A program made the position numbers and the translations under genes. A DNA stretch of 32,435 nt from Anthoceros angustus (lineage: Eukaryota > Plantae > Anthocerotophyta): NCBI GenBank assembly GCA_010909165.1, contig VJWM01000369.1, positions 1-32,435 of the forward strand, written 5' to 3'. Under the pieces are notes generated by a model. The model searched no databases, had not been told where the DNA came from, and worked only from the letters and a program-made list of their open reading frames with translations. Shown here one piece after another: positions 1-30,504 of this stretch (its first letter is position 1; each line of letters starts with the position of its first letter).

Positions 1-259
1 ACCAAGCGCTCGACACCATTGCCCGACTTGCGAATCATGTAGCCATCACGCCAATAGTCTTGACCAGCTGCCTGTTCTTTTCGGTGGGTCGGGCCTCGTC
101 CATATACAGTGCAAATCTTGAAGAGCATTCACATCTTCCCAAATGTCCTTTGCATTAGGTGAGCAAACACAATCATCCAAGGCGGTCATGGCAACAAGGG
201 CTGCGACATGACATCGGCACCAATCTCCTCCTCATGGTCCTCCCTAGCCTCGGTGACAT

Positions 260-1660: not shown

Positions 1661-1859
1661 TGGATCATCTAAGCACTCTCTGGCTGGAGGCGGAAAAAGC
1701 ACTGTAGGGGCGCCACGGACTGCTCCACCCCCATCCGGCCAGAAAGGCATGTATGCATATCCGAGAAAAGGAGATGAAGCTGCGTCATTTGGACACATCT
1801 TGTGATGGGCTGGTACCATGGCTGCCAAGCGGCGTGGAGCTGAAAAGCCAAGCACGGAC

Positions 1860-2343
1860 TCACTAACCACGTGAGTGCGTGAACATCCATGGCTCGCCTA
1901 GAGCACGCTTCTTGTTGTGGTGTAGTAGGGCTGGCATAGAATGGGTGAAAGCCCATAATGCGTTCCGCTCCGGCGGTGGGTTCCTCCCAGCTGCTGCGTG
2001 TTGGTGTTCAACGGCCATCCCTCGTACATGGCGAATGAACGGAAAGCTAACGGTGGGCGGTCTGCGGTGGCGGCGGTGTGTTGGTTTTGAACCAAGGCGC
2101 CGCTCACTTGTGTAACAAGCTGGTGGTGATGATCCTCGCACCGATTGAAGGCTGCAAGGACGGGTCCTGTGTGTGCCACGAAGCCAGTCTGGCGGGGCGG
2201 GGACCAAGTTGGTCGATAATTCCTCAGCGGTGAGCAAAGGCGCCCACACAGGCGCATCTAACAGGATGGGAGGCCCGGCATAATCTTGGAACCTGACGCC
2301 ATGTCTGTGCACATATACTGCGTCAAATTGCGCGGTGTGTATT
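1860..2343 (-). pseudogene. C5 cytosine methyltransferase, C-terminal half (motifs VIII, IX, X)
   Basis: Stitching frames across small deletions gives GPPILLDA..GAFAHR-LRNY-TNL (2205-2276; compare DNMT3A PVMIDA..AAHRARYFWGNL), ERIMGFHPFY (motif IX, ~1947-1971) and KRALG/RAMDVHALTWL (motif X, ~1865-1907). Confidence 0.82.
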
Positions 2344-2594
2344 TGATGAAATAGGTCTAGCTTAGGGCACTATTCATTAGGGCCTCATTACTTAAACATT
2401 AATTTAGAGCTAGGGCTTTAGGTAGTTAGTTGTTACAACTTATAGTTGCAACAACTTATGGTTGCAACTACTTATGGTTACAACAACATATTGTTGTAAC
2501 CACACCACCCACCCTATTTAAAGGCTTGTACTTTACTCATTAATCAATTCATTCCATTGTTTCTCTTCTATCTAAGAGCTATTGATTCTCATCA
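2344..2594 (+). repeat. Copia 5' LTR (251 bp)
   Basis: Direct repeat of 9583-9839, with 6-bp terminal inverted repeats TGATGA/TCATCA, internal ~16-bp repeats and TATA-like TATTTAAA at ~2515. Confidence 0.97.
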
Positions 2595-2605
2595 TGGTAT
2601 CGAGC
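2595..2605 (+). promoter_or_regulatory. Primer binding site, tRNA-iMet type
   Basis: TGGTATCGAGC directly after the LTR equals canonical TGGTATCAGAGC missing one A. Confidence 0.85.
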
Positions 2606-3539
2606 ATTTAGCTCTTTGTGCTTGAGCACCTCGCTTCCTTATGCTCTAGGCAATTTTCTCTCCAATGCTTTTGCGTTTGTAGTACTTCAAATGAAGATAA
2701 TGCGTGGAGATTTCGCCTTTAGACAATCATCGGTGACACACAATGATGCACACATTGTGCATCAATTTCTTATCGCTCCTCATGGATTCCTTTAATCCAA
2801 GGACAAGAATTTAGGAGGAAGATCAAGGCTTCAAAGAAGAAGAAACAACATCAAATCAAATCTTCTTACATTCGGGAGGAGTTTGACCTCAATTCTCCTC
2901 AGTTGATGTTTTAGAGGCACAAGTATGTTGTCTCATTGAAGCCCTTTTGTCTAAGTCGAGATAGAGTACAAGATATCATTTATGCTCGTAAAGCTCTCCT
3001 TTCTACATTTAGCCTTTATCAATATAGTGCTATAGAGTCCCATCTCTAAGTACATAAAAATAAGGCTAGTATCTTCGCTCCTAATCCGGATCATCTAGCA
3101 ATCTCTTGATTCCATTAGAGCGAGAACTTAGAATAAATCACTCGCTATCAATGAGAAATTGACTTACAATACACAACAAATCAATATTATCACGATAGAC
3201 TTGTTGACCGAGACCTTTCACAAGGTCTCTTCTCACTTGATTGTAAGTCTGCAGATTCGATTATGATGCGAAATTCATAATTTGAAGAAATGTTGTGCAC
3301 GCCTCTTTCCGCAAAACAATGCAAGAAGGCGGCGTGTCAACCACGCATAACCTGCATCATTAAAATTACTTGCAATGGTGGGGTCGGACGATCTCGACGT
3401 GGATATTGATGACTTGGTAGCGAGCAAAATTTTGGCCAAAAGACCAAATGGCTTGAAGAACAACAATCTATATGGCGAGATGAATGGGAGCAATTTAAAA
3501 GGAAGAAAAGGAGAAAGCTAAAAGCGTAATGAATCCAAG

Positions 3540-6500
3540 CCTCAAGTGATTCAAGGTGACAACTTTAAAGACAAAGATAGATTCAACGGCAGGCGATGTA
3601 TGGCAACAGTGCCCAAGGTGTCTGCACGATGGACTTATGGAATATTGTCAGCGATGCGGAAGAATGTTCCACTTGGGACTCGATGCTATAGATGAATGGG
3701 AAGCCAAAGATCGGAGGCAGACGCGTTTTAATGAACGGACTTACAAGCAATGGTACTCCAAGTTGCGACGCAAAACACCGCATGAGATGTGGGAGAAGTT
3801 AGCTCGACTTTATGCCTCCAAAGATGGAATGAGCTTATTGATCGCCACCGTCACTTATATACTATAAGGATGAAGGAGATTCCTTACAACAACACTTGAG
3901 CAACTTCCGTGTGCAAAGAATAATTTCAATGCATCCTCAAGAAAACTTACAGAGAAACAAACTTTTATTGCTCTCTCGCCACTTGCCGCCTCCTATAGGC
4001 CCTTTGTGACAACGCAAAATGCGGTCCTTAGAGTGCACAAAAGCAGAAATTAATCGGCTCCCAACGCTGGATATCGGTAAGTGAATTAATTGGAGCACTT
4101 ATTGAGGAGGACGCGTCGAAATGAAAATCCCGATCAGCCCGCCAAGTAATGTACGGCCGAGGAAGAGGGCGTGGCCGAGGCGCGGAAACTTCACTCCTAG
4201 GACTCCTACTCAAAATTTTCAAGGACCATCCACTTCTTCATTTAAACCTTCAAAAGGCATGAAGAAGGCTGGAGTTACAATTGGTGCAAGATGACCAACC
4301 ATATGGAGAAGGATTGTTGGAAGAAGAAAAATGGTGAGCCAAAGAAGGAGGTCACCGGGCACATGTTGCCGTTAAGAAGAAGCCCTCCACGGCAACTCCA
4401 TCAGCACTCATGCCTTGGCAAGTTCCAAGCCATCAAACCAAAATTGGTATTTAGACAGTGCAACATCTCATATATGTCACGACTTAACTTTTTGAGTCGA
4501 TTCGCCATCAAAAGGACAACAACTCCTAGGCGGCGACCATAACCTCACCATATTTGGTAGGTTCCGTGGCATTAAAGTGCTCCACCGGGTTCTTACTCTC
4601 TCCCATGTCCTTTATGTACCCTCCATGTGCAAGAATCTAGTGTCACCGCTAGTTTATGTCAAGAACATAACATGCAAATTATCCTTGAAGCCGATTTGTG
4701 TCTCCTTTACTATCATACTAATAAGTATCACACAACTGCTCGGAACACTAGAAGATGGACTCTATAAACTCTCGGTCAAGTGGGTCCGTTACACCTCATC
4801 AATGTAGCCTCCCATTCCACTCTTCAAGCACCATGCTTTGGCTGTCGATTAGGTCATCCGAATAGCCAAAAGCTTATCCAAATGTCTAAGGAAACATAGA
4901 ACTCCTGTATTCCTAAACTTGAACCTCTCACGGTGTGAAGCTTGCGTCATAACCAAAAATTCCACAATCCATCCCCTCGGAGGCTAGGCACCCTTAGAGT
5001 TGGTTCACCAGACATTTGTGGTCCCTATATCGCACCTTCATTTAGTGGTTGTAGATATTTTTAACCTTCATCGATGATTATTCCGGTTCGTCCTCACCTA
5101 CATCCTCCGCCATAAGAGTCGCCTTTTCTTTCTTCAAAGAATATATGATGTGGGCGAGAGACTTAACAGAAGCTTAAAACTCTTCGCTCCGATAATGGAG
5201 GAGAGTTCACTTCAAAATTTTTGAATTTTGCACAAGGTATAGCGCAACAACTTAGTGTGGTACACACCTCACAAAATGTAGTGAAAACAAAATTTACGCC
5301 TCCGAGATCACAGTGTTTGCTCACCCAAGCTACATTATCTAAAAGTTATTGGGTGAAGCTATATTGACAACATATCTCCTTAATAGATAACTTGGTCAAG
5401 GCATGACTCCATATGAAGCTTTCTTGGGAAAACCTTCATTGATCATTTACGAATCTTGGATCCCCGCTATGTGTTCATCCCCAAAGTACAACGCAGAAGT
5501 CGATCCCAAGGCGACCAAATATACCTTTATTGGCTACAGAAGGCATTAAGGGTTACAAGTTATTTGACCCATCTACCCGAAAGCTCATTTATGCTAGGGC
5601 GTGACCTTTCATGAATCTCATATTCTTTCTCCTATTATGGCATCTGCTCCCATTACTCCCGATGCTCCTTCCTCTGCGCATCCGAGCCTTCCACTTTGAT
5701 GACGATGATTTTGTCATCATTCATTCACTCCCTCCAGCAAGCTCCTATGGATGAACCTCATTGCGAGGAGGAGGAGGAGTTAGAATATATTCCAAGGCGA
5801 CCAACTACTCCGGATCGATTTAGAAGAACCTCAACATTTAAGCGATGATGAAATCGACTATGATGTTGAAATTCGTGAGGAGGATCGTATTCCTTTGAGG
5901 ATGAGCCGTCGGCGAGCAAGTGGATGAATTCGACGACGAGCGAGCAAGAACTGCGTTACACCGCACAGAACCACTCAACAAGTGGTCGACATTGAAGAAC
6001 ACATTCAACAACCGCACCAAGGTACAATCTTAGGACTAGACCACTGTTGCAGGACTGCTGGATGGAAGGAACCACCTTTGGGATATCTTGTCACTGACCC
6101 CATTTCTCCTCTCACACCTTATTATCAAGCTGTTTACAAAGCCACAGTTGATCCGGAGGAACCGCTAACCTTGAAACAAGCATTTTCCTCTCCGAGAAAG
6201 ACACATGGAAGGTAGCGATAGATTGATACAACTCTTTAGTAGAAAACTCCACATGGGAATTAGTTAAACCACCCAAAGGGAGAAAAATAGTGGGAAGTAA
6301 ATGGGTCTTTAAAATCAAACGTAAGGGTGATGGTTCTATTGAGCGATATAAGGCAAGTAGCGAGAGGGTTTACCGATACCGGGTTTAGATTACATACCAG
6401 GCTACCTATGCACCTGTAGCAAAGTTTGCCTCCTCGAATTATAATAGCCTTGTGCTCAACATGACTTACATCTTCACATGATGGACGTCAAAGCGCCCTG

Positions 6501-7665
6501 CATGGCGAATCCAAGAAGAAATATACATGAGACAACAAGGCTATGAAGTCAAAGGTAAAGAAGACCATGTATGCTCATTAAAGGCATTTATGGCCTTAAG
6601 CAATCGAGCAAGGAATGGAATAATGATATACATGACAAGCTTACAAAATATGGTTTTGTTCAAAGCAAAGCGGATGCTAGCATGTATATCCACGACTAAA
6701 CGATTACACAATTTTACCTCTTACTATATGTGGATGACTTATTTTTAGCTTCATCTTCACTCTCCCATCTAGCTGAAATTAAAGCATGGTTGAGAAGTCA
6801 TTATGAAAATGACGGACACAGGAGACCTTAGTTATGCCCTTGGCGTTAACATTATAAGAAATAGAGGTAATAAATCCATTTCCTTGGTTCAAACAAAATA
6901 TATAAAAGAAAGCTTAAATAAGTTTGGACTAGAAGATGCTAAGCCGCCACACCATTTCCAAGTGGCACAAGGCTTACAGCAGATATGAGCCCTAAAACGG
7001 ATGCTGCAGAAATGTCAGCGGTACCATACGGACATCTTTGTTGGCACCTTAATATATTTAAGTAACTTCACAAGACCCGATATATCTTTTGAAGTTAGTG
7101 CGATCTCACAATTTTTGAGAATCCACGACAACATTGGCAATGTGTCAAGAGAATATTCAGGTATTTAAAAGGGACTATGCACAGGATTGATGTATAAACA
7201 TGTTCGGCATATCTAAGTTACAATTAACGACTTATCGATGCCGATCTTGGAGATCCCGATAGCCGCAAATCAGATCCGGCTATGCATTCGCTAGGAGGTG
7301 CACCCATTTCATGGTCAAGTAAGAAACAACCAACCATTGCTTTGTCTGAGTCGAGTATAGGGTCCTCACCTCGTCTCCAAGGATATAGTGGAGTAGGTTA
7401 GCATTGAGAGTTGAATTATCCCAAGATGGACCTACACCTCTACGGATGGCGGGGGCTATTGCCTTAGCTAGGAACCCTGCTTTCCACTCGAACTAAACAT
7501 ATAGCGATCAGTATCATTACATACGGAAATGTTAGAAAATAAAACAATAGATATCAATTATATACCAACTCAAACAACCCAGCTGACCTTTTAACCAAGT
7601 CATTAGGAAGAGATTTGCATTTAAAACACATGAAAATGTTAGGAGTACAAGAGGTTAAGCCCTAG
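3540..7665 (+). pseudogene. Copia gag-pol polyprotein (frameshifted in this sequence)
   Basis: Gag HEMWEKLARLY; knuckle YNWCKMTNHMEKDCW (~4277-4320); protease WYLDS(G)ATSH (~4445); RLGHPN; integrase LELVH.DICGP, FIDDYS, LRSDNGGEF (~5182); RT WELVKPPKGRKIVGSKWVFKIK and LLYVDDL (6721); RNase H SWSSKKQPTIAL, RTKHI, QPADLLTKSL; stop TAG at 7663-7665. Confidence 0.93.
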
Positions 7666-8173
7666 ATGTAGGTATTTCCAATTTTACAATCCACAAAGTT
7701 TATCTAGCATGTTTATTTCCTCTTCTATTTCCAAGTAATCATCACTGTACTCCTTCTCTTCTCTCTAATGCCCAAAAGGACCCTACAAAACACTCCATGG
7801 GTTACGGGAAGAAAAATGGTGTTGAGTTAGTCATTCGGGTTAGGTCACTTACTATACAAGTGCTTGGTGTGTCCTTCGTACTCTTCACATGGATATGCAC
7901 CTAACCACATCATTTTTATCCCTTTTCTCACATACATATTCCATGGGGACTTGTGGTCGTCCTTTCCTCCGGAAGCACCATGTATGTTGCTCATAGGTTT
8001 CGGTGGCAAATAGGAGTTTGGTATTTTCCTTTTGTTTTGTTATAGGTTGTAGAGGTAGGGCAAACCTCACATGGCTTGTGCCTACCCTTTCTCCACATCC
8101 AAAATAGATGTAGATTAGCTTATTATTAGCATAGGTTACACTAGTTACTAGCCCCTAACTATAGGTTTTACAC

Positions 8174-9033
8174 CTACTCACTTTTCTTTTCCCTAGCCCC
8201 TACTTCTCCTATGTCGTAGCATATGCTCTCCAGGCTGCCCTCACATCTGACTGCTGGGGCCTCTCTGTTTATGGAGTCCCACTCCTCACTCTTCTTCTAT
8301 GTTGAAGTCATACCCGGGACACTCAGGATACGCTCCAGGCCCTCGGTAGTTGGATTATCTACATCAACAATCATTAGTATTTTTATGCAATCAAATTATT
8401 TATTGCAATTTATTTTGCATTTGTTGGCTTACCAGCCCCTCGACTTCTTTGATGACAACATCGGTTTTTAGTGCTTGTACCACCAAGGCGTCATCTTCTC
8501 CATCGGCTTTTCTCCACTGTTTTAGCCACCTCGGCACATGCTTGCGAGGAATTCACAGAGAAATTAGGATCTTCCATATCATTTCCTATATTACGGCCGG
8601 GTCCCGACATCGGGATCTCTTCACCCCGTGCGAGTGCATCTCTATACCACAAGATGCGCCCACGGGCGGCTTCCCGGCTCAATATATCTTTTTCTCTACG
8701 TGCGGCAAGTTTTCTTCTCCTTCTTGCTACTCGGTTTGCTCTCTTCATTTTCTTTATGGCCTCGTCCTTTGGAGCACGGGGGGGGGCACGGGAGCCTTCC
8801 TCCGCACGACAAGGACCTGCCACCACATTAGGCCTTTTTATTTCTTAGAGACCAAGACATGGAAAATGGAAGAACAGGCATGGAAAATGGAAGAACAGGC
8901 ATTGAAAATGGAAGAACAGGCATTGAAAATGGAAGAATATGCAAAATTCAGGCAACTCACCTACTATCAAGCGTGCCATATTAACACGAGATAGTCTCCA
9001 CTCCAACTTTGTGGCCTGCAACACTATGGACAT
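8174..9033 (-). pseudogene. Putative spliced antisense accessory ORF inside the Copia 3' region; exons 9033(or 8979)-8961, 8816-8433, 8358-8174; two in-frame stops
   Basis: Intron 8817-8960 reads GTGAGT...CCTAAT...GCAG and intron 8359-8432 reads GTAAGC...TACTAAT...GTAG. Both are phase 1 and splicing keeps one frame. Product is basic in the middle (KKMKRANRVARRRRKLAARREK). Confidence 0.55.
8858..8941 (+). repeat. 21-bp tandem repeat x4 (CATKGAAAATGGAAGAACAGG)
   Basis: Copies start at 8858, 8879, 8900 and 8921; the array lies inside the predicted antisense intron. Confidence 0.95.
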
Positions 9034-9093
9034 ATAACAAACTGCATTTTTGGCCTGCGGGTGGCGGGGCGGCCGATTTAGGATAAGCCCGTG

Positions 9094-9500
9094 TGGGCTT
9101 ATCCATTTAAATATTTTGGCCTTTTTTGTTTTCGGAGCCCCATATTTATTTATTTTAGGCCTCTCTTTTAAGCCTATTTGGAGCTATTATTTTATCAACC
9201 TTATTCTGGTGAATATTTTGGTGGACATATTAAGTTTTCTATTTCAGGCTTACTTATTCATCAAAGCTTAAGTTATCGGCACTTTTCTTGGGCTTATCCA
9301 TTTAAAATATTTTGGCCTTTTTTTCGGGGCCGCTTTGATTATTTATTTTATTTTAGGCCTCTCTTTTAAGCCTATTTGAGCTATTTGCTATTATTTTTCA
9401 ACCTTATTGGTGAATATTTTGGTGGACATATTAAGTTTTCTATTTCAGGCTTACTTATTCATCAAGCGACTTAAGTTGTATGCACTTTTCTTAGGCTTAT
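9094..9500 (+). repeat. ~195-200 bp AT-rich tandem duplication (two copies plus start of a third)
   Basis: TGGGCTTATCCATTT...CACTTTTCT units start at 9094 and 9289; partial TAGGCTTAT at ~9492. Confidence 0.9.
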
Positions 9501-9570
9501 AACTTTTGATTAAGTGAGTCTATCTATGATTTAGACCTCATTTTGAGCTAGAATTCACCCCTACATTCAT

Positions 9571-9582
9571 AGTGAGTGGGAG
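9571..9582 (+). promoter_or_regulatory. Polypurine tract of Copia
   Basis: AGTGAGTGGGAG immediately before the 3' LTR TG. Confidence 0.8.
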
Positions 9583-9839
9583 TGATGAAATAGGTCTAGC
9601 TTAGGGCACTATTCATTAGGGCCTCATTACTTAAACATTAATTTAGAGCTAGGGCTTTGGGTAGTTAGTTGTTACAACAACTTATAGTTACAACAACTTA
9701 TGGTTGCAACTACTTATGGTTACAACAACATATTGTTGTAACCACCCAACCACCCAGCCTATTTAAAGGCTTGTACTTTACTCATTAATTAATTCATTCC
9801 ATTGTTTCTCTTCTATCTAAGAGCTATTGATTCTCATCA
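9583..9839 (+). repeat. Copia 3' LTR (257 bp)
   Basis: Differs from the 5' LTR by only a few substitutions and short indels; followed by TSD GTATT. Confidence 0.97.
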
Positions 9840-10245
9840 GTATTCTCAAGGAGGTAAGCACACCGCGGGTTGTATTGCTGAGCCCATGTGAGGACCTGAT
9901 GTAGATCCCTGAACAGCCCTGAGCGTGCATCTTGTAGACCAGCTCCATGCCCAGCTTGGGAGAACCCCTGGCATTCCCAGCCAGCAATCACCATATCCAC
10001 ATTTCCCAAGGCCTGAATGTGGCCTTCTTGAATGTAACGGACATCCTGCGGTAGAGCAGTGAAAGCACTGTGATAGGCCTCCAAGGCGATTCTTTGTGGA
10101 ACGCTCATGCACCCTTGCGGCTGAACTCTGCGATACGGCGTCTTTGTGACATCATTGTCACAATACACGTATCGTATATGGCGATCCATCATCAAGAGAG
10201 CCTCCGGCCCGATCAGATCCGCCAAAGAGTTCTACCACCGTGTCC
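9840..10245 (-). pseudogene. C5 cytosine methyltransferase, N-terminal half (motifs I-VI)
   Basis: Motif I VVELFGG (10218-10238, adjacent frame); II YVYCDND; III LPQDVRYI; IV VDMVIAGWECQGFSQAG (9950-10000, catalytic Cys 9971-9973); V GLQDARSGLF; VI YLLEN(T), which ends at the Copia TSD. Confidence 0.92.
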
Positions 10246-10599
10246 CAGACGATGGCGCCCATGTAATCACATTGTGATCCGGCCTCGATCTTGAGTGGTG
10301 GTTAACACTGAATCAACAAGTGCATCACTGCACTCTGTCTCTTACATCTTGTAGCGTGAGCTGCTCGGATGATCGGGTTGTGCAAGGGCATGTTGCAAGC
10401 TGTGAGATCCATGGGACTGGGAATGGCGTCATCAGCTTCAAGATTGTGCATACTGGCCTGGTTAGCATCTTGGACTAGCTTCACAGCATTGCACGGGACA
10501 GGCTCCTTGCTAGCATGGCACACCACTAACGTGACAGTCTCGGTGGCCACACTGCCGTGCAAGTCCAAGGGAATATGTGCTAAACGCCGTCCTCCCTGC

Positions 10600-10900
10600 T
10601 GCCAGTCAGGCGGATAGAAGGCCTGCTCCGTCCAATTATCCACTCCTACGCCAGGTGGGAAAAGAAACTCCTGTCCTAGCAGCAGGTCGTAGTTTGTGGC
10701 CGTGGTCACCAAGCACGGCAGAGACATGGTCATGGCATCCGATGAGCACGGATTCAATGTGATGTGCACAGCTCAAGTCTCGCCACACACAGGCTCCACG
10801 GCCCGGTGCGGATGTTCCATGGGGATTTGAAGTGCTTCTCCTGCAAACCAAGCCGTCTTGACTGCCTATAATGGTGGCGCGATGTCCAACACCACCACAG
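10600..10900 (-). pseudogene. Gypsy aspartic protease (retropepsin)
   Basis: Degenerate VVLD-x-A active-site region near 10885 and C-terminal YDLLLGQEFL motif (ORF 10302..10769). Confidence 0.7.
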
Positions 10901-11399: not shown

Positions 11400-12760
11400 C
11401 TGGTGATGGGCCTGCATTTGCTAACACGATGTCCGAGCCAAGATTAATGGCATGCCCAACCCATGTAGCACATCTTCCCTTAGCTTGTCACGAGGCAGCA
11501 GGCTACATCAACACCTCATGTGGGTGTCCATAATCTTCTCCATTGTTTCAGAACCCGGCTCTGCGACCCTGCAGCTTAGCTCCACCGCTTTCGAGGCTGG
11601 TTGTAAGCGTGCCACTGCCAAGGCAGCCACCGTGGCCTCCGGCGTCATCTTGTCGCGTTCTTGCAACCTTGGCTTCGCTTTCTCCTCATTGCTTGCTCTT
11701 AGAGTCCCCACCGCAGGAGTTGCTCCTGTCTTGATGCTAGTAGCATCTCCGGTGATGCCGACGGTATCTCCTCTCGGGGTGAAGTTGAAAGCACACGGTG
11801 CTCACATGACCATTCTTTTGACAATGAGTGCAAAGAGGCCTTAGGTGGGCACTTGCAATTCGGTGAGATGTGCTCGGGCGCCACAATGGTTGCACATGGT
11901 GGCCGGTAGCAGTGCGATCCTTCTTTGTTGCTCCATGGTGGCTTAGGGTGTAGTCCTTGAAGAAGTTCCCCAGGACACCCTTGGAAAACATGCCTTGATA
12001 ATGGTGGAAGGCCTTGGAATGCTTGGAGGAGAGAAGGCGGAGTAAGCAATCTCTTTCTTCTCCGCTTCCTCATGTACCTGCAAAGTATAGGCATCGCCAT
12101 ACTTATCCACAAGTGAGGACAACGGTGGAAATGAAACGGTGATCACCCTCAAGAATGAGGAATTTCTCACGCTTCTTGGTACGTGAGCATGCAGGTCCCA
12201 TCTCGCAGCTTTTGCGACCCTCACGGAAACACATGGGATCTCCCCTTTAGGCGTGCAAAGCTTGCCGCTCATAATCTTCTCGGGGTCTTGAGTGGAAAAG
12301 CCTTCTCGAGGATCTTCATGAACTCTTCCACAGGTTGGCATATTTGGGGGTGTGTATGAATTCATCAATCCCTGCGTGGTCATTGTCCTCTCTGTGGTGA
12401 GGAGGCATCACGGTGGGTGGCGGCAAGTGGCGGCGGCGATGCAGATATGGCTTTGGTGGGTGTCACTTGACTTGGCATTAGGCCATCTGCGGTGCCCTTG
12501 GAATAATGGATTGAGGCAGCCGTAGTTGAGGTCGGCTCGCTTGGTGGGCTTCATACAAATCCGAGGCCTCATCGACCATGTATCTTGATAGTTTGTTCGA
12601 ACATGTAGAGGTGGTTATCGCATGTTTGAACTTGACCTACTAATTGCCTCATTGACTGCAGCCTAAAATCCCTCAACGATTGTGTTCTGGCACTGAGAAT
12701 TTCTCACCGCCATTTGGCCCTCCTTCCATCGTGTCGAATCGCGAGTCCTCTTGCCACAGG
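11400..12760 (-). pseudogene. Gypsy gag with CCHC zinc knuckles
   Basis: Perfect CX2CX4HX4C CTHCQKNGHVSTVC at 11791-11832; a second frameshifted knuckle CNHCG..H....C at ~11855-11895; KFS..RTQSLRDF gag-like start near 12700. Confidence 0.75.
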
Positions 12761-15037: not shown

Positions 15038-15130
15038 CCAGACAGCTGGTTGTTGGAGAAGTCCATTGCCTGCTTCAGAAGCTGGTTTGGTGTGGTAGCC
15101 ACTGGACTTCTCCAGCAACCACCTTTCTGG
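15038..15130 (+). ncRNA. Pre-miRNA-like hairpin (candidate MIR locus)
   Basis: 36-nt arms 15038-15073 and 15095-15130 pair with 4 mismatches and 2 G:U pairs; the G:U pairs form only on the + strand transcript; no bulges; ~21-nt partly paired loop. I do not recognise a known family. Confidence 0.6.
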
Positions 15131-16361: not shown

Positions 16362-17746
16362 TCAGACTCCCAAGACCACTCTCCTCCTCTTTGCCAAGGG
16401 AGGGGAGGCCGGGGCCGACTGAAGACCAAGATCTGGAACCAGGAAAGCATCGTCAAACTCTGGAACCAGAGCCATGTCCTGCTTCCCTTTGCCCTTCAGG
16501 GTGCCGTTCACCCTTCCCGGTCTGCTAGACAATCCCGAGGCAGCAGTAGACAGCTGCGGGACTTCATGAAGCGATTCGGCATACACCTGCTCATCAAAGA
16601 GGCTAAGATCTGCGGTCCAGTCGAAGTCTCGAAGATTCGGCACATCGGCCTACACAAAAAGGAAAAAGTTAAAAAAACAAACCGATTCCTTAAAAACCTT
16701 TGTCCGTCGGGACACAAGACACCCACGCGAATCACAGAACATCTGAGAAAAGAAAACGACGACGACGGACGATTCCAAAGAAAATATTTCAAAACTTCAA
16801 GCGGCAGAAAACGTGAAACGAGATAGCTACCTTGGATGAGCAAACGTCTCCTAAACTGTAACCATCTGCCAGCTCCGGTATGTTGAGCAGCTCCTCCACA
16901 CGCCAACCGGGCACACTCTCGGTCAGGTACTCGGATATGCTGCTCCTCCTGGCGGCACCTCCATTCCCGCCCTGGCTGAACAACTGGCCGTAGGGAAGGG
17001 CGGAATAGGTAGGTCTAGAAAGAGCCCCTGCAGTCCCACCACCAGCACCGCCGCCGACCACGACAGCATTCCTCCCCGTGGAAACCCCGCTACTAGCAGG
17101 CTGCGGAGCAGGGGGCGGAGGCGAAGCCTTGGGCACCTGGTACAGCTTCCCACCGCTCACCGACGGGCTGGTGACGGCCACAGGCATGAGCGGCAAGGAA
17201 TGGGAGTGCGACTGAGAGTGCGAGTGCGAATGGGAGTGCGAGTGCGAGTGCACTGCATCCTCCGGCACCGAATCCCCGGCCCGCACCTCCCCCCGTATGG
17301 CCTCCAAGGCAACCCTGGTCCCAGGCACCAGGAACCGCTGATGGCCGGACGAAAGGTGGTTCACGGAGTGGATAGACACATCGCACTCCCGGCACAACAG
17401 CGCGCGATCCTCTAGGCAGAAAAAGAAGCCATTCTTTTCCTGCACACCACACCACAGCACACCATCCGACACCGTGAGCTTCCATCCATAGCCGTAGCCA
17501 TAACCGTAACCATGACCACAAACAAAGCTCCTCATTCCCCACATCCCCAGGTGTACCACTAACCTGGCAAATGTCGCAGCGGGGCGAGTCCCCGACGTTC
17601 CCGAGCAGCGGCACCCGGTGATGCTTGTTGGCCAACTTGTTGGCCGCGTGCACCCGCAGGTCGCAGTCCACGCAGAGCGCCGCCTCGTCCGCGCAGCACA
17701 TCACCGAGGCCGGCGCCCGCTCGCACACATCGCACTGCACTCGCAT
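16362..17746 (-). CDS. BBX22: Double B-box zinc finger transcription factor, structural group IV, BBX22/LZF1-like; exons 17746-17564, 17439-16831, 16649-16362; 359 aa
   Basis: B-box1 [45 protein letters not shown]; B-box2 CDICQ|[24 protein letters not shown]; two phase-0 GT-AG introns; [22 protein letters not shown]|AD junction, EVPQL..ASGL, FLVPDLG, C-terminal KRRR; no CCT domain. The symbol means closest resemblance; orthology is untested. Confidence 0.93.
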
Positions 17747-18232: not shown

Positions 18233-18824
18233 CACGTGCTGGTGCCGTCTACCCGCTCTGACCGCCAGGTGCCGGCGGCACCAGGGCGGATTTAGCAGAT
18301 AACAAGGAAATATCACCTGCAAAGGGTGAAGTGCTGAGCTGGAGGGTAGCAGACGGGAATGGATGCCGAAAAGGAGTTTCCTGTCGCGTAGCGGGGGAGC
18401 TTCCGCGCGACCGGCCCGCTGCGCCCACGACGGGAGACTCGTGTTGCGCGACCCCCGATCGGCGCGCTCCTCTACACCTCTCTTCCACCGCTGTCAGGGT
18501 TGCGGAATCGGATTTGCGATATGCGATTTGCGATGTGCTGTGATGAATTCGCCCTCTCAACCTGGGTTTGATGTACTGTTTTATAACCGTTGTCGCAGAA
18601 CACCACTGAGGGGCAAGAAGGGAATGAAAATGGGAATGGAAATGGAAATGGAAATGAAAATGATAATAGGAATGGAAATGAAAATGAAAATGAAAATGGG
18701 ATTTGGGATGCGCATATGGCCAATGTCGACGCCGCTGGGAGGCTGGAGCAAATCGGCCGGCACGTGCGAACACGGCTGCTGGAGCCTCTCCTCATCCGCT
18801 CCTTATCATCATCCGCTCCTTATC
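18233..18824 (-). promoter_or_regulatory. Candidate light-responsive elements upstream of BBX (G-boxes and I-boxes)
   Basis: CACGTG at 18233-18238 and 18761-18766; GATAAGG on the minus strand at 18801-18807 and 18818-18824, produced by a 17-bp tandem duplication. Confidence 0.45.
18620..18700. repeat. Hexamer microsatellite (GAAAAT/GGAAAT)n
   Basis: About 13 degenerate 6-bp units. Confidence 0.9.
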
Positions 18825-20076: not shown

Positions 20077-20728
20077 TCAATCAATTTTTTTATCACCTAA
20101 AATAATTTCAATGAGCCACAATAAATTTTTTATTTCCTCTCTTGATGAGTAATATGCTAGCCACGAGTTTTTTGGATTAGTTAAGTGACCTTCCCGTCGG
20201 ATCACTATTAGGGCCTACCTATCCCGGATTACTCTTCAGCCTTGGTAGCCTGCCTATTGTTAAGCTCTTTAGAGCCCCTTATTATGAATTCCTTTCAAGT
20301 TCAATAATACATATCCTCTACTCCACTCTCAAGAAATGGTTGCTTGATATATGATCTTTACTAGCACGCCTTTGCCTTGGCTGTCTGTATGGCTTTGAGT
20401 AGCAACCCTTGACTGGCTTGGTGTGGCCCACTGCCCTATTTTTGGGGGAATTTCTGTATTTTTTATTTTTATTTTTATAAAATCTCAGGCTTTCGCCTTA
20501 AACAACTAGCACGCCCGTAAAAAATGGATGCATGAAATATTGTCTCTGCTCGCAATTGGCCACTATTGTAAGGCTTTTCGGACCTCCTAATTACCTCTGC
20601 TATTGTAAAGGTTTTGGAATCATCTAACTTAAGGGGATGATAAATATCCGATCTATTTACTAAAACAATTATTTCACCATTTGTGGCACTACTTTCGCTG
20701 ACAGCCAGCCGGGCGTACACAGATCTCG

Positions 20729-22245
20729 TGTCATTGTGGTATGGGGTCCGATCCCAAGGGAATGACCTTCAAAATCGACTGCGGTTTCCTACTCATTTCG
20801 CCACAACTTACCCTTCTTACGCATTTGGCAACCTTTATGATCCGACTATGACGACACAGTCCGCCTCACGTGCCTCCCTTGCACGGACTCTATTGGCGAG
20901 CACACAGGCACTCGGCGTAGGGCGGAGGAACCACTTGTGTTGTGTTCCTGGCCGGACGTATTACCCTCTACACCCCTTGAGTATACATGTCACTCACAGG
21001 TACAACGCCCCTTACTTTATGTCTCACCGGTATATTACCATACAGGCCCGGTATGGCCGAATGTTTAAGGACTCGTTCTCGTCCCAATGTTCTCTCTCTC
21101 ACCCGTGACTCCCTTGCCATTCCACTCTTGTTGACCTTGTACGCACCTAGAGGTGCTTGGTTATGAATTGCGCGTCCACGATGCAGTGGGTTTGACACCT
21201 CGCATTTCGACCCAGCCCGTCGATTTTGGCTCTGAGGCCCTCCACAGTGGCCCGGCTCTCCATAGCTCCGGCTGTTGGCCGTCGGGATCCTGCATTGGAA
21301 GAGCAGGGGTCCCGGTTTCTCCACACCTGCACTCACCACCACTCGTTAGGGTTCGTCACCAGATCCTGGATAATTCTCTCTGGAGTAGTCCGCCCGCTCG
21401 GTGACTCGGGACTCGCCTTGGTATTGGACTCACAAAAGCCTACAAGTGTAACGCGGCATTAACCCCAAAAGAAAGATCACATTACTGGGATGGCAACCCC
21501 CCTCTTATACTACGTTCCAAGACAGTACCTTTATTATATTCCTAGATTGGTCCTGCTTCCAACCAACTACATGCCTTGTGCGCGATCCCACGGCGTGAGT
21601 CCTATCTCGTCATGGCGGTGAGGGGACTCTGACTCGACCCTCGACCCAATCCCGGCTACGCGCACTTAAGGGGTGCCCAATCGGATTATTCTTGACCCCC
21701 GGAGTCCCGTAGAGGCCCTCCTCCTTCCTTTAATCGTCGGTGCCCTGGAAGGTGGTGACAACGTATCCTTAATTAAATCCTCCTCGCCATTGTCCCCATG
21801 CCCTAGTGGGTCCCCTTCCCTCGGGTCCGTCTGAGGTCCATTCGTCTTGAAATTTGGTGGGGCATAACCCACTGACCAAGTCCAGCTAACATTGGAGGTT
21901 GGACTTGAGTCCAGTCCTCACCTCACGGTCCGGGACCTGCAGGTTCGTCCTCACCTCCGGAGTCCGGACCTCTGGGTCCGCCCTCTCCTGGTCACGGACC
22001 ACGCTCAATCCTCTCCTCGAGTCAGGACCAGGCTCAGTCCTCTCCTCGAAGTCGGGACCTGCAGGTGGGTCTTTCGGTCAAACTTCTATAGCAAGTACCC
22101 TCCTCTGGCATCCGGACTTCCAAGTTCGGATCCGCCCTCGGTATCCGGAGTTCCAAGTCCGGACCTGCCTCCTGGGATCCCATGTTCCCCTACGCCATCT
22201 CTTCCCCCCTTTCCGGCCTTCCCTCCTAGCCGCCACCCGTCGACA
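20729..22245 (-). mobile_element. LTR-like segment B (diverged inverted homologue of 28650-29669)
   Basis: Its reverse complement shares ordered blocks with 29130-29680: TAATAAAGG, TATAAGAGG, ATCTTTCT.TTGG.GTT, TTTGTGAGTC, GTCCTTAA...GCCATAC, TCATTCCCTTGG..CGGAC, GACACG.GAT. GTCCGGAC-type repeats at 21900-22175. No TSD; inner boundary uncertain. Confidence 0.6.
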
Positions 22246-24279
22246 GTAGGAGGAAAACGAGCTACGGGCGTGTGTAGGGGAGGCCGCCTTTTCCTCAACG
22301 AACGAAGAAGAGGGTGGTGAACGACGGACAGACGAGTCGGAAGGCAAAGGGGCGGAGTTCACTGATAGCGAAAGGAAGGACGTCGTGGAAGAAGTGTTGG
22401 TATCGGGGAGTGAGGAGGAGGTACACACCCGGCGTGGCACGCACTCATGACCAGTCACGGGAATTTCCCTGTGTTGGACCTCGCGAGGCGGAGTCCACCC
22501 AACTTCGACCAAAGTGCCAGCGGTGACAGAGGTCCGTGTGGTGGGAATTTCGGAGGCTTCACGAGGGACACAATTGTGAGAGCGCCTCGATCGTATCCTG
22601 CTTTCCATTTCGATCGTTTGGGACGGACAACAGGGGAGGTCGCTACTCTCGATTAGTTGAACTTGACCCAAAGGCCGATTAGTTTTACGGTCCCGGGAGA
22701 GAAGCATAGGAGTAGCGTTGACGGCCAGGACAAGCAACATGAGTGGAGCCAGCATGGCGCAGAGGGCTGCCCGGCTCCACGATTGCCGACAATCGTCAAA
22801 TTTGGCGAGAAGAAGAAGGCGATGGCGGAGGCGTTGTGAGAACTTTCGAGCCGTCTCCCACCTTAACTTGGAGGATGGGTCATGTCGTACGCATCTTTCT
22901 TGGATGCTTTGAGAGGGCACTGTAACAATGGTATGGTCGCACCTAGCGGTGGCACCAACATGTTAGGAGCTCTCAAGGCATTTCTTAATGTTTAGGGGCT
23001 CGATTCTGGCATCATACTCTGCAAAGCGGGGACCCTCGTCGGAAGAAGAGAATCCTGTTCGATTATGTGGAGAGGTTCATGGATACGGATGGGGTTCCAA
23101 AGTGTGCACCGGGCGGGGATCCACCCACCTGCAGGTATTCACCGAGAACAAGGCGTGGAGCAAAAGTTTGGGCAACAGTCCAAAAGCGGAAGGCAAACAA
23201 GTTTGATTTTCTTTGGCTAAAAATGATTGAAGAGGAGCATGTCGGAAATTTTAGAACCTTGGTCAAGTTGTAGGATATTGTTAGGAAGTCGAAGAAGATA
23301 TCCCGGACAAAGAACGGGTCAAAAACGACCCCAGTGACAGAATGGCGGTCAAAAAGGCGGTGGTGGAGACTACCATCGTGGTCGCCACACTACAGTGATG
23401 GTGAGAAAAGGAAGCGGACTACGCGCGGTGGTGAGGCGGGGATCTCGGCCGGGAAAAGCAATGAATATAGGGGATATCCACTATATGCTCATCAATAGGG
23501 AATAAATATATAGGTTAATTAGGGGTGGCGGCTAGGATAGAAAATAGGCGTTTAGATAGGATTAGGATTTTTTAAATGATGAACCAAATCTAGGGTTATG
23601 CGACCTCGGTGGCGATCATCCAAAGAAAAAGCGGTTTGAGGCGCCAACTTCCTCTTCGATGGCGTCCTCACTTCCACAAAAGGCTGGGCGTAAGAGCGCC
23701 TTGAGAAAGAGAAGAAGGCTGCCATTGCCGCCGTCGGCTGCGACTTGTGAGCAAGAGGAGGCGGAGCGAGGAGGAAACCTAGGCGAGAAGGGGAGGAGGC
23801 GGACTCGCGCTCGAACACCAGCAGGTGTTTGGACCCGGTGGCTGTGAAGGGCAGTGCTGGAATTTGTCAAGGCGGGAGCCACGTCGAGGAGCCTAGCGGT
23901 GTGATTGAAGGGATTGAAGAGGCAGGAGAGCAAATTGCGAGCGGAGAAAAGAAGCGCTCACTGCCGTGGCTGCCTTGGGGAGGAGAAATCGCGAGAAAAT
24001 TAGCAGCGGCTAGAAGGCTCAAGCCAGGGCTAACGTGTACTTGTGCCTCGGGTTGGGTATTGCTAGTGACAAGGAAGGGGTGTTTGGGAGTAAAGCTTTG
24101 GAGCCCACGGCCACAGGTGGAGAGTAATTCTCTTCGTTAAGCGTTGGAAGTGAGAAGGTGCCATGCCTGGGAAGAGCAAGGGAAGGAGCCACCTGAGGTT
24201 CCTCCTCGAGGAGGAGGAAAGGGCCAAGCGCAGGCGCCCGCTGAGGAGGAGCTTATAATGCCCCAATTCACTTGTTTTG

Positions 24280-24900
24280 CAGCTTAACCCCGGATTTGGT
24301 TGATTTTCGGCAATGGGCGAGGAGGATAACATCAATTGGGATGGGTGTATGGCCGCCAATGGGCCTACACCAATTTAGAGTTGATTGAGGAGTGCTTCAT
24401 CAATCTCCATCAATCGCAGCCCTTGCCCGTTCAGGAAAGGAATGCTCGAGCGGATCCTCATTCTTTGGACCGTAAGGAGCATTGACGGTGTATGGGAGGC
24501 AGGAGGAAGCTCGGGTGCTCTCCTCGAAGGTCGAATGGAGGAAAGAGGGCCCTCTCAGAAATTCATGAGCTCCTCGACATGATGGACGGAGGAGTGAAGG
24601 CCCACGAGAATGGGTGGAAAAGCAGAGCATCAAGGAGGTAGTGGGCTCTTTGCGAAGATTGCTGGGTTGGTGAATTACCAAGGACTTCTTATTTCAACTT
24701 CCTCGATTTTGTGGAAGATTTCCATGGGAGCCAAGCGGTTGGGGAACAATTATATGTATGAACATCCACGAGAAGCTCCTCAAGCCGAAATTTGGATGAA
24801 GAAGGCCGAGCCTTGCTACCTTAGCACCTATTTGGTGCATTTGTGGAAGCGGAGGACTCCTCACAAGCAAGGAGTTGGAAGATGCTTGGCATCCTTGGAG
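24280..24900 (+). pseudogene. Degenerate retrotransposon accessory ORF (unknown function)
   Basis: Frame-stitched protein-like blocks: WAYTNLELIEECFINLH, LSEIHELLDMMDGGVKAHENGWK, LFAKIAGLVNYQ, SYFNFLDFVEDFHG, NIHEKLLK, CYLSTYLVHLWK. No RT, INT or transposase motifs. Confidence 0.4.
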
Positions 24901-25849
24901 ATAATCCATCTCAGCCAAGCTTGGAAAGGCCCTTGCCTTTTGCATTAAGGAAGGCGGTGGGGAGGTCGGACCTCCAAGCAGAGCAAGGCGGGAGGATGTA
25001 GAGGCAAGCAAGGTTGCGGTGGAATCTTTTCCCCAGGGGCAAGGAGAGAGGAGGCAGGCCGGCCGAGGCCGAATGGTAGTCTATGAGGGGAGGACTACCA
25101 CGGGAGGGTGACAGCCCAGGGTGGGGAGTCCCCACCATCTCGTTTGTGCCTAGCGGAGCACCCCGTGCCTACCGGTGAGGCGGCCTACCGAGGAGGTGGG
25201 ATGGGTCGACTACCACAGGGTGATGGACTACAGCGGTAGGGGAGACCTACATGATGGAAAAGCACCTCTGGGTGAGGTAAAGGAGGAAGGAGAAGCGGTA
25301 TGGCCTTGTGAGCGCCTAGGCCACCACTACCGTGCTTGGAGGAAGAGGAGGCGGATGGGGCGTAGTGAGGGGACCCAGCGCCGTCAGCGTGATATTGGGG
25401 AATGCGAGAGCTGGAGATTTCCAGCAAGGAGATGGTGGGCCCTTAGGAGACTTCTTTGAGAGTCTTGTATGGGCTATGCACTTCCACAGGAGTTAAGAAA
25501 TAAGTAGGGTTTGTTTTTTTTTTAGGATTGAAGGATAAATAAAGGCGGAAAGGAGGAATAAATTGGGGTGGCGCTTGGACGAGGCTCGGAGTATACTCGG
25601 ACTGGAGTGAACGGACCCCGGTACCACTATGGCAAGCTCCGGACTACGCGGAATGTGAGGATAAGTCGGAACCTCCCGGTCAAGCAGGATAAATCGCGAG
25701 TAACCTAGGGCGGGCGTGAGGGCAGACGGCGCCACGTGGGCGGCCACAGTGGAGGTCGGGCATCGATAGGCGGGGCCGTAACCTTGCAGGCCGTTATAGC
25801 GGTATTCACGCCCATGTGCAGCGTAAGGCAGTAAGCAGGCGTAGGGTCG

Positions 25850-28620
25850 AGTAAGCCATGCGGACCCACAGCGATTCTGGACACGCCTTCAGCCCGTGAT
25901 TACTTCCTGGCGGCCAAGGAGGAGGTCATTTTTTGACCTCGGACAATCCTCCACGGTCCCTTGCGCTCCATCTCTCTGGCGCTATCTTTTGGGCGATCGG
26001 ACAGGCGCGGCTCTCGAGGTTGGAGCGTGACAGCGGCGAAGGAGGAACATCGTGCCGTGGACTCGGCCAAGAGGAGGAGAATGGCACCCAAAAGCGGAGT
26101 CAGGGCCATGGACCCTCGTGGGCGCAACATTGTGACCGCTATCCGGACTTGAGACCTGGGAGGAGGCGGGGGAATTGGTGCGGGAGTGGCATCTGGGCGT
26201 GTTCCAAATGCGGACCTTTGAGCGTCACTCTAGTCGGGAGTTTGCGGAAGATGTGGCGATCAACAAGGAGGTCGATCAAGAACCTCGGGAGGACCAGGCG
26301 ATGGACCTTGGAGGTCCACGAGGGCCTACCTTAGAAGGAAGAAGGGCGTGGTGCAGGCCCCTTAAGGCGAAGGGAAGATAGGGGGCCGGCCACGGCGTCT
26401 TGAGGCACAGGCAGCGGACAACAACCAGCGGATGGTTGATATCCGTCTGCTGGGCGGTCGAGTAAGGCGGTAGCCGGATCATTATCCATTGGAACACCGC
26501 TCACCAAGGTGGATCACCTTGGTGATAACTGTTAGTATTCACATGCGCTCCGGTGAGGAAGGCGGAGGGAAGGATTATCTTCGCCGGTTCGATCGAGAAA
26601 CCAAGCTAAGGGCGAAGCCCTCGCCATCGGTGACCCATACGATTCATGGGGACATTTGAGCTCTGAAGGAGGGGAGCTTGAGCAGGCGCTCGGGAAGGGG
26701 CTGGAGGCCTGAGTAGGCGTGCAAGGGCGCGGGTGGGTCGTCCTTGAAGACCAAGCGGACTCGGGAGGAGGGCGGGAGGATTCGGACTCCATCGTGCAGG
26801 CGAACCCCTCACCACCCGGGGAAGTTTGGGAGGCGATTCCCCTTCCCTCCTTTTGGTGCCCCTCGGGCGGCAGCCGGGAGAGGCGTCTTGGGAGGCGTTG
26901 GCGGCTCGGCACCGGCAACCAACAACCACGGCGGGCTGCGGGCCGGCGAACTCAGCGGGGCCGAGGCGGAAGGCGGTGCCGCCTGCGCGGCACCTCGGAA
27001 GGTGCGGTACCCACCACCTTGCAGGGTAAAGAGGTGAGGCGGTGGAGGCGAGAAAGGGCGTGGCCCAAGGCGAGGAGGTCAGCGGCGGCCCACCCGGCCG
27101 GTCCCGGCGGAAGGGCAAAACTTGCTCCGGACCCCCTCACCTCCTCAAGCCCAGGAGAAAGGGCACAAAGGAGTTAGAGGCCAAGAGGGCCAAGAGGGTG
27201 AGACTCGGACCTCACCACTCGGGACTGAGGTCTGATTAGGTCAGGAGAACCCAGTCCGGACTTACTCGGGGTATGGAGGTCCTTGGCGGACCAGAAATGC
27301 GGCTCCACGGACTTTGTGGGGGCCTCACCGGCGGCGTGGAAGAAACAGGCGAGTCACAGCTTCGTCATGACGGAATGCTTTGGGGTCTCAGTAGTGCAGT
27401 GAGAAGACCCGAGTGGAGGCCACCGGAGGAGGATGGTGGAACTCAAGAGCAAGTGAGGGGCAAAGGCGGAGTCCCTCGCTCGGATCGAGGAAGGGGGTGG
27501 CCTTGAGGCCAGGCGGTTCGGGGGCCGGGCCAAGGTTCTTCAATTGTCTGAGCAGTGAACAAGAGGAGCAGGCGGAGGACCTTGCGGCGAAGAGAGCGCG
27601 GGAGGCGGAGGCCGGGCACAAGCGAGAGCTCGGGACTGGCGGCCCGGCTAAGCGGCGCCAAGTGGAGCCGAGGTAAAAGCGGCGAAGAGTGAGCCGCGGC
27701 AAGCGGCCGGATCACTACAGCGTGATCGGGCCGGTGGAGAGTCGGTGACGGAGGCTAACTCGAAGGCCGCCGCTATGGGCGAGGCGGTAGGGAGGAGAGA
27801 TGGAGGCCGGCACTCGGGAGATAGGAGATCTCAGTGCAGTGCGAGGAGTAGAGAGGCGGCGAGATGGAGGCAGCAAGGACCTGGAGCTACAACTCCAAGA
27901 TCGTCGGGCGGTGATTCTCAGCGAGAGAATCCACGACTTGAGCACGAAATAGAGTGCCTCGGCTCCGTCGAAGGCGGAGGAAAATCGGCGACTATCGAGG
28001 TTGGGCGTTGCAGGCTGAAGGAGGAGGAAGTCAGTCGGGAGGTACGACTTTGGAGAGGGCTGGCGGAGCTAAAGGCGGGAATGAGCGGAGGCGAGCCTGG
28101 GGCGAAAAAGGCTGGTCCGGTGAGAAAGGCGGAAGGAGCAGCTGCGCTATGGCGATGGATGGAAGGAAGCAGCGGGAGGCTGGGCGGTGGAACAGCAGCG
28201 GTGGAGGTGGAGGCCCTTAGCCTCGCGTGTCTGACCCGGCTCGTATCTGGCGGGAGAGGTGGCCCAACAAGCCCGGCACGCTCCGGAACACTTATGGCGG
28301 AGGGAGTATCGGGTGCTCGGGCACCGTGGAAGAGCAATTCAACAAGTCGATTCGGACTTTGCCTATTACCTGAGCTCTGAAGCGATGAAGCCTCTCGGCC
28401 GGCGCAAGCAGACGGACCCTGGAAGGCTCGAGAAGGAGATGAAGGCCACGGGGCCACAGGGGACCCTAGTGGCCTGTTTGGAGATAGCGGAGGCGGAGGG
28501 AGCGGAGGAGGCGGAAGCGAGGCGGCGGATCGGCGGTAAGCACCCGCACCTCACCATGGAAGGAGGGAAGGAGTCACTTGAGGCGATCGGGAGCAGCGGA
28601 GGACTTGAGAGAGCCACGGA
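25850..28620 (+). pseudogene. Degenerate E/R/A-rich, coiled-coil-like ORF region, probably TE accessory
   Basis: Fragments WEEAGELVREWHLGVFQMRTFE, EQEEQAEDLAAKRAREAEA, DLELQLQDRRAVILSERIHDL/EHEIECL, LEKEMKA..LEIAEAEGAEEAEARRR lie in shifting frames. Confidence 0.35.
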
Positions 28621-28649
28621 GGAGTCCGTGAGGAGAGCGGGTGGGCGTG

Positions 28650-29669: not shown

Positions 29670-29969
29670 CGGGATTGTGCGGCGGTGGCCATCGGCAAAA
29701 GTCGCCACATTTTGGCCGTTGCGAATGAAATCGATGCGTGGTCTTTAAGTCGTCCTTAGGAAGAAGGTAAGTGAATGCGTGGCGGTCGGCGGTCAGTGAG
29801 CGTCGGGAGGATCGGACGTGGTCACCTCGCGTGCTCTCGAGGCAGGGAGGAGAGGCGTCAAACCCAGCGAGAGACCGTCGATCGGAGGAGGAGAGCGTGG
29901 TCGGTGTCGGACCAAGGCAGTCACAGGGTACAAGGCGTAGCGGAAGAAGGTGGGGCGACGCCTAACCAG

Positions 29970-30400: not shown

Positions 30401-30504
30401 GGAAGGGCGTGGGCAAGGCGGTCGAGGCGGCGAAAACTACGAGAATCGCTACATCGGAGGACATGTCGAACATGTGCTGATTTTTTACTTCACTTCTATC
30501 TCGA

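Follow-up and report, generated by a model that had tools for sequence, protein, structure and literature searches.

A Gypsy-type retrotransposon family with a DNMT3-type methyltransferase domain between protease and reverse transcriptase, in a probable land-plant host

Retrotransposons with an enzyme of the class that their hosts use for silencing are rare in print. The window studied here (the whole 32,435-nt stretch of contig VJWM01000369.1) was predicted from its sequence to hold such a case, namely a Gypsy-type element with a complete C5 DNA methyltransferase (DNMT) that lies between protease and reverse transcriptase (RT) and is masked by a nested Copia-type element. Is this domain real, does it belong to the element, and what would it do there? 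We find that the domain is real in both of its halves and is a trait of the family, and that the locus is a real, probably land-plant case of an already published kind of element. The copy in the window is disrupted; intact members of this Ty3/Gypsy family would, on balance, probably methylate their own newly made complementary DNA (cDNA).

The two halves of the methyltransferase and the long terminal repeat (LTR) element that separates them are located in the window as follows.

1840-2343, minus strand: DNMT3-type methyltransferase, C-terminal half (C-half), with motifs VIII, IX and X; 44.5 bits at 2288-1840
2339-2343, no strand: GTATT target-site duplication, left copy, read from the sequence
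2344-2594, plus strand: 5′ LTR of the nested Copia-type element, recognized by its identity with the 3′ LTR
2595-9582, plus strand: internal region of the nested Copia-type element, with primer site (~2595-2605), purine tract (~9571-9582) and pol in short frames; matched by many public contigs of runs X1 and X3
9583-9839, plus strand: 3′ LTR of the nested Copia-type element, recognized by its identity with the 5′ LTR
9840-9844, no strand: GTATT target-site duplication, right copy, read from the sequence
9845-10241, minus strand: DNMT3-type methyltransferase, N-terminal half (N-half), with motifs I-VI, the Cys codon at 9973-9971 and the motif VI Glu at 9847-9845; PF00145 match and 125.9 bits

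Both halves gave significant matches. The N-half is recognized by PF00145 (E 2.9e-8, 33.9 bits against a cut-off of 22) at 9824-10231 on the minus strand, and scores 125.9 bits over 10241-9845, with two breaks, no stops and motifs I-VI, against a frameshift-tolerant family profile built from 119 related domains with the window excluded. The PF00145 match expected for the rejoined domain was missed in the C-half, where none of the three frames tested gave any Pfam match, but this half was recovered by the family profile with 44.5 bits at 2288-1840 (six breaks, no stops), compared with maxima of 18.5 bits in 78 other tiles of the window and 15.7 bits in 25 shuffles. In tblastn searches, the C-half also matched five relatives with E values of 0.001-0.015. 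The motifs run in the canonical order I, IV, VI, VIII, IX and X, and the read-through of the window contains the catalytic Cys, the motif VI Glu and two motif VIII Arg residues, with the Pro before the Cys replaced by Glu. The methyltransferase is complete in this sense, but only when read across about eight frame breaks.

The insertion itself is exact. The nested element (2344-9839) enters the methyltransferase, read on the minus strand, directly after the motif VI Glu; its LTRs have TG...CA ends and are identical at 247 of 251 aligned bases, with two 3-nt gaps, and the element is flanked by the GTATT duplication. It is a young insertion, and excision of 2344-9844 removes the nested element and one GTATT copy, exactly as predicted. 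The Copia label is less secure than the insertion, as it comes from a weak Pol_BBD match (E 0.0015) and motifs read by eye; a tRNA-Met-like primer site after the 5′ LTR and a purine tract before the 3′ LTR were also read by eye, and the longest frame in the pol region has at most 105 residues. Because of this insertion, the present copy is unable to encode the enzyme. Tandem repeats of 16 nt occur in the LTRs; in the interior, a 21-nt unit is repeated at 8855-8959, ~200 nt are duplicated at 9094-9465, and an additional short frame without a Pfam match runs on the minus strand at 8491-8844.

On the minus strand, the element that was interrupted reads in the order gag-like, protease-like, DNMT, RT and RNase H, with the following parts in addition to the methyltransferase.

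11700-12600, minus strand: gag-like region (weak, limits approximate), with a CCHC zinc-knuckle-like stretch at ~11850-11770
10480-10900, minus strand: aspartic-protease region, C-terminal part aligned; 54.4 bits at 10824-10566, tblastn E 2e-10 to database protein P0201
281-1648, minus strand: reverse transcriptase and RNase H; 341.7 bits, RVT_1 and RT_RNaseH_2
109-162, minus strand: pre-integrase motif; 20.9 bits, marginal

The Gypsy-type nature of the element and the position of its methyltransferase between protease and RT thus stand as predicted. Downstream of the domain, the RT-RNase H stretch scores 341.7 bits against a profile of Gypsy relatives (1648-281, 13 breaks, two stops, YxDD kept), with Pfam matches to RVT_1 (E 9.5e-4) and RT_RNaseH_2 (E 7.1e-5). 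Upstream of it, the protease-like stretch gives its 54.4 bits against a profile of four protease-DNMT relatives, with the catalytic triad falling in the unaligned part; the matching region of P0201 is recognized as Asp_protease_2 at E 0.015. The marginal pre-integrase motif is shared with chlorophyte relatives, and with its position at 162-109 a DNMT could not fit between RNase H and integrase. The gag-like region had no Pfam match, and its tblastn matches to the knuckle of P0201 (E 0.45) and to P0324 (E 0.23) are weak; it is covered by contigs of runs X1-X3, one of which (7751 nt, from X2) connects position ~12005 with the DNMT half. Neither the integrase nor either end of the Gypsy element was located within the window, nor was a repeat pair for it; its 3′ end falls outside.

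Many of the frame breaks may be assembly errors, unevenly spread over the window. Of the 13 breaks in RT-RNase H, 11 are short codons, and seven close X1 contigs differ from the window by 28 substitutions and 55 gap letters. This excess of indels over substitutions, together with the preponderance of short codons among the breaks, suggests uncorrected long-read errors in repeats. The short frames in the pol region of the young nested element point the same way. The two LTRs have no single-base gaps between them and the exons of a neighbouring B-box gene are intact, which counts against a uniform error. Frame breaks are no guide to how old the Gypsy copy is.

Is the methyltransferase a trait of the family or an accident of this copy? 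Sister copies, which the original prediction wanted examined for the domain, were sought by aligning public contigs (runs X1, X2, X3 and X5) to the window, and uninterrupted ones do carry it. The 7751-nt X2 contig runs from the gag region through the DNMT N-half to RT, at a spacing of 1443 where 1357 is expected without the insertion; a 4374-nt X2 contig, paired between two alignments by its length and depth, has a spacing of 993 against an expected 893. Neither contains the 7.5-kb insert, and in both the DNMT is joined to RT. Since they are only ~77-82% identical to the window in the aligned pieces, these two contigs are sister subfamilies. The motif IV region is matched by 18 contigs in X3 (a second organism code), two in X2 and one in X1, and all five listed differences in sister contigs, from a filtered table with few differences, are at third codon positions. 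The C-half has nearly no contig cover at a likeness of at least 80%, except for a trace in X3, and X5 had no match anywhere on the window. Together with the database relatives described below, these contigs make the DNMT domain a family trait of the Gypsy element.

Among 254 database proteins, 203 have the domain after RT/RNase H or directly before integrase, three have it directly after protease, 47 show only the domain and one is without it. The three protease-adjacent proteins are P0201, P0294 and P0324 (Closterium sp. NIES-53), to which P0333, with a protease-like region upstream, was added later. P0201 and P0294 stop ~170-180 residues past the DNMT without reaching RT, and P0324 is partial; the C-termini of the first two share a Cys/His-containing stretch, a hint that some subfamilies may have a separate Gag-protease-DNMT open reading frame (ORF). 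The other position is that of a large chlorophyte Gypsy group (including P0104, P0107, P0126, P0155 and P0295) with the order RT-RNase H-DNMT3-integrase-PHD and intact catalytic residues. Its named members are all chlorophytes (Haematococcus, Monoraphidium, Hariotina and Cymbomonas), and most complete relatives of this type end in a PHD finger; the DNMT of this group is often missed by precomputed Pfam annotation. Of 37 metagenome loci (L001-L037), found with a search pattern that is blind to PC-type members, 33 have the RNase H/integrase position, four are uninformative and none has the order of the window. In DNMT trees, built without an outgroup (neither host DNMT3 nor outgroup RT) and with the window represented by its N-half only, the window groups with P0001 and every protease-adjacent protein in a single clade (FastTree support 0.975 with 92 of 236 domains; SH-aLRT 95.2 and ultrafast bootstrap 98 with 34 chosen rows). 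As a separate observation, the C-terminus of P0002 (~residues 1050-1210), past the integrase, contains DPWAG and then FSPWF, which by eye resembles an amino-type (N6A/N4C) methyltransferase; it has no Pfam match.

Both sequence and predicted fold identify the enzyme as DNMT3-type in all its parts. Against DNMT3A, the family profile aligns over positions 3-322 with E 3.5e-20, compared with E 6e-10 to 2e-7 for plant DRM-type chains and 1.6e-6 for HhaI, and the model predicted for P0308, a member of the window's clade, has a pLDDT of 94.3 and a DNMT3A-like fold, with a best Foldseek E value of 2.4e-20 and DNMT3 structures for all 35 of the matches listed. The DNMT3-type character that had been proposed from motifs VIII-X therefore holds over the whole length, and the Dcm-like reading of motifs IV-V is not supported: the E values just given and the partial nature of the viral matches speak against a prokaryotic Dcm/HhaI-type identity. 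Of two viral scans, one found no relatives among 10 candidate stretches and the other gave only partial, generic matches to phage methylases (best E 2e-13), and no close viral donor was seen in either. A look-up of P0201 in the ESM Atlas returned only leads below 0.9. The human DNMT3A catalytic domain (PDB 6w89, 5yx2) is thus the best match in both sequence (the E value above) and fold (TM-score ~0.7 by query). The family is only ~24% identical to it, has ~17 extra residues following motif II and either EC or PC at motif IV, and no PWWP or ADD domain was seen in it.

The catalytic residues are strongly conserved among 236 family domains: the Cys and the motif VI Glu are present in all 236 and the two motif VIII Arg in 233 and 234, with all four together in 232 of 235, figures that are inflated because the set was gathered by profile and is redundant. 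Pro-Cys is the canonical motif IV dipeptide, and the DNMT3A alignment shows it too. In this family both PC forms (such as P0308 and P0201) and EC forms (such as P0324 and P0002) occur, and both are found within the window's own clade. Among the titles returned by a literature search, which alone were screened, none dealt with the Pro of the PC motif.

The relation in kind to published retrotransposon-borne DNMTs, pointed to in the original prediction, was borne out. The closest known system is KnitGypsy-Dnmt3 of Klebsormidium nitens, a Gypsy-type element with a Dnmt3-type domain (de Mendoza et al. 2018, PMC5890265; this paper and the others compared here were available in part). The two share a Gypsy-type, intronless make-up, unrearranged motifs, a Dnmt3-type domain with its catalytic residues kept and a streptophyte host, and the features found in the window that match this type are the Gypsy-type RT/RNase H with a protease-like stretch upstream, and a DNMT3-type C5 methyltransferase with motifs in order, no introns and catalytic residues kept. 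They differ in that the host of the window is probably a land plant; domain order, motif IV and repeat layout lie outside what the available parts of that paper allow to be compared. Its domains have Ka/Ks values below 0.2 and its terminal repeats are DIRS-like and split, and according to the reviewer reply the DNMT shares a single ORF with RT and RNase H (PMC5890265). No Klebsormidium sequence is among the named relatives of the window, whose clade includes a Closterium protein.

SymbioDIRS-Dnmt3 and SymbioLINE-Dnmt of Symbiodinium are likewise retroelement-borne C5 methyltransferases, and that of SymbioDIRS is also DNMT3-type, occurs in two domain orders and methylates CG de novo in yeast, with self-methylation proposed; unlike the window element, they have DIRS or LINE backbones and a dinoflagellate host, and go back to independent captures (PMC5890265). 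The EpiLTRs of Euglena and Cymbomonas also have LTRs and encode a cytosine methyltransferase within pol, but their enzyme is sister to DNMT4 and accompanied by a DAM domain and a chromodomain (bioRxiv 10.64898/2026.05.21.726589). We rejected an EpiLTR identity for the window element, since its domain is DNMT3-type and no DAM domain was seen from gag to RNase H (the C-terminus lies outside the window). The available part of the same preprint treats the streptophyte Gypsy-DNMT3 as a separate acquisition and lists Gypsy-DNMT3 only in streptophytes. The 2018 range of methylase-bearing retroelements is repeated in what was available of PMC12344493, and the accessible part of an opinion paper (PMC6338049) describes methylase-encoding transposons as absent from land plants such as tracheophytes. 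Our literature search, with most subscription papers beyond reach, found neither a Gypsy-DNMT3 in a land plant nor the chlorophyte RNase H-DNMT-integrase form, and PMC6317226, PMC11982613 and PMC6673714 contained nothing on Gypsy-DNMT3.

How would such an enzyme serve the element? In the mechanism that we favour, the DNMT domain would be translated along with Gag and the protease, enter the particle and, after processing, be either free or still fused. It would then methylate cytosines of the double-stranded cDNA de novo (to 5-methylcytosine), either ahead of integration or during it and probably at CG first like other DNMT3 domains, and the new copy would integrate already marked like host chromatin. 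Such self-methylation appears likely from where the domain sits, from the conservation of its catalytic residues and from the ability of SymbioDIRS-Dnmt3 to methylate CG in yeast. Several observations weigh against this reading or parts of it. The window shares EC at motif IV with 162 of the 236 relatives, and PC occurs in only 59. In yeast, no methylation was obtained with KnitGypsy-Dnmt3, an outcome that its authors call inconclusive (PMC5890265). The element has a CpG observed/expected ratio of 0.62-0.78, compared with 0.70 for the nested Copia-type element and 0.51 for another Gypsy remnant in the window; its CpG depletion is not stronger than that of its neighbours, and composition therefore gives no signal of self-methylation, nor does dinucleotide composition separate self-methylation from host methylation. 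None of the 254 relatives carries DNMT and then RT within a single protein, which leaves a single Pol, and protease release of the enzyme from it, unproven, and the two X2 contigs come from a single run and share only the limited identity given above with the window.

The EC motif and the silence of KnitGypsy-Dnmt3 in yeast are also what would be expected if the domain were kept as a non-catalytic or weak module, binding cDNA or S-adenosylmethionine, or acting as a DNMT3L-like partner or a decoy of host DNMT3. We regard this as unlikely, as the Cys, Glu, Arg and motif I glycines are kept across ~40% identity (in the redundant, profile-gathered set), PC and EC are mixed within the window's clade and the predicted fold is complete. 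An active enzyme could instead have another target: once in the nucleus, it might methylate host DNA, other elements or the chromatin where the new copy integrates, with the PHD finger of relatives as a possible guide. In favour of this are the 203 relatives in which the domain follows RT/RNase H or immediately precedes integrase, and a PHD end that would suit action at integration. In the window's clade, by contrast, the domain sits by the protease, away from the integrase (in the window itself the integrase end lies outside), and we consider this alternative still less probable than a non-catalytic module. The richness of the window in short indels in repeats and the poor cover of the C-half in the runs might raise the suspicion that the assembly is chimeric here, or that a fragment of a host or bacterial methylase was captured just once. 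This reading was refuted by the sister contigs and relatives and is extremely improbable: the target-site duplication is clean, the sister contigs are colinear and uninterrupted, the same protease-DNMT junction recurs in four database proteins, no introns are seen and the affinity is to DNMT3, not to bacterial enzymes.

A further alternative concerns history and not function. Related Gypsy elements may have captured DNMT3 twice, once next to the protease and once next to the integrase; the trees contain neither host DNMT3 nor outgroup RT, and the branches that join both forms are weak (87.7/54 and lower). Both forms are nevertheless ~40% identical and have in common the extra residues past motif II, the unusual EC at motif IV, and the protease, RT and pre-integrase motifs, and for these shared features we favour a single capture followed by a move of the methyltransferase module within Pol, which seems likely from the sequences; two captures strike us as doubtful, though less so than the functional alternatives above. 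In the history that we prefer, one green-plant Gypsy lineage would have captured a DNMT3 domain, found at the RNase H-integrase site in chlorophytes and on the protease side in streptophytes. A bolder version would have a DNMT3-bearing Gypsy lineage as old as the green plants, with intact catalytic residues in both forms (RNase H-DNMT-integrase-PHD in chlorophytes, protease-DNMT-RT in zygnematophytes and land plants), a DNMT that moved across Pol in streptophytes and a Glu-Cys site that methylates the element's own cDNA; taken as a whole, we put this forward only as a tentative possibility.

The host was assessed from one gene in the window.

16365-17746, minus strand: three-exon B-box gene, intact, host-lineage marker; zf-B_box matches, exons read, trees

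By this gene, the host is with good probability a non-seed land plant, and possibly a liverwort, the likeliest of the sampled lineages. The protein is most similar to those of Marchantia (64.2% identity), Riccia (62.8%) and Diphasiastrum (61.2%), followed by Mesotaenium (59.5%), Coleochaete (58.1%) and Chara (49.1%), and its C-terminus closely matches liverworts. In a maximum-likelihood tree of 22 of the 34 rows (ferns, seed plants and near-duplicates account for the 12 left out), it falls within the land plants (91.5/74) but not in the moss clades; moving it to liverworts or lycophytes costs 0.2 log units, and to five algal positions 7-15. The window gene also has a short motif ahead of a conserved Trp that 10 of 17 named land-plant rows share and all six named algal rows lack. 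Two points weigh against the land-plant assignment: approximately unbiased (AU) tests reject none of the five algal placements (p 0.063-0.26), and the motif was picked after the alignment had been viewed. An AU rejection of Mesotaenium, Coleochaete, Chara, moss and lycophyte placements, obtained with a fast search, was discarded, since fuller searches rejected no algal one (moss was not retested). The named proteins among 78 B-box matches include none from hornworts or Klebsormidium, so that hornworts are unsampled, and an ESM Atlas look-up of exon 3 returned nothing. The gene resembles an ortholog of Marchantia BBX4; its exons are GC-rich, the second contains a His-Ser repeat, and hexamers are repeated both in intron 1 and ahead of the gene (18611-18718).

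Elsewhere in the window, a related Gypsy remnant in the opposite orientation occupies 30493-32435 on the plus strand, with integrase at 30493-31477, an RNase H end at 31602-31728 and integrase again from ~31931; it has no space for a DNMT between RNase H and integrase, and is 86% identical over 43 nt to 364-406. An inverted repeat at 15038-15130 has 34-nt arms, 85% complementary, around a 25-nt spacer. The ~10 kb at 20400-30400 are GC-rich and purine-skewed, have no Pfam match in 20 frames starting there, and are probably more repeats.

Taken together, what most deserves attention here is the wider green-plant range that these elements appear to have, the two positions of the domain in Pol and the Glu-Cys site. 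The large chlorophyte set, the two Pol positions and the Glu-Cys motif provide natural variants for asking if and when the domain is active. A bryophyte-grade host, if true, would bring the system to plants with tractable genetics and full CG/CHG/CHH methylomes, in which self-methylation by the element could be tested.

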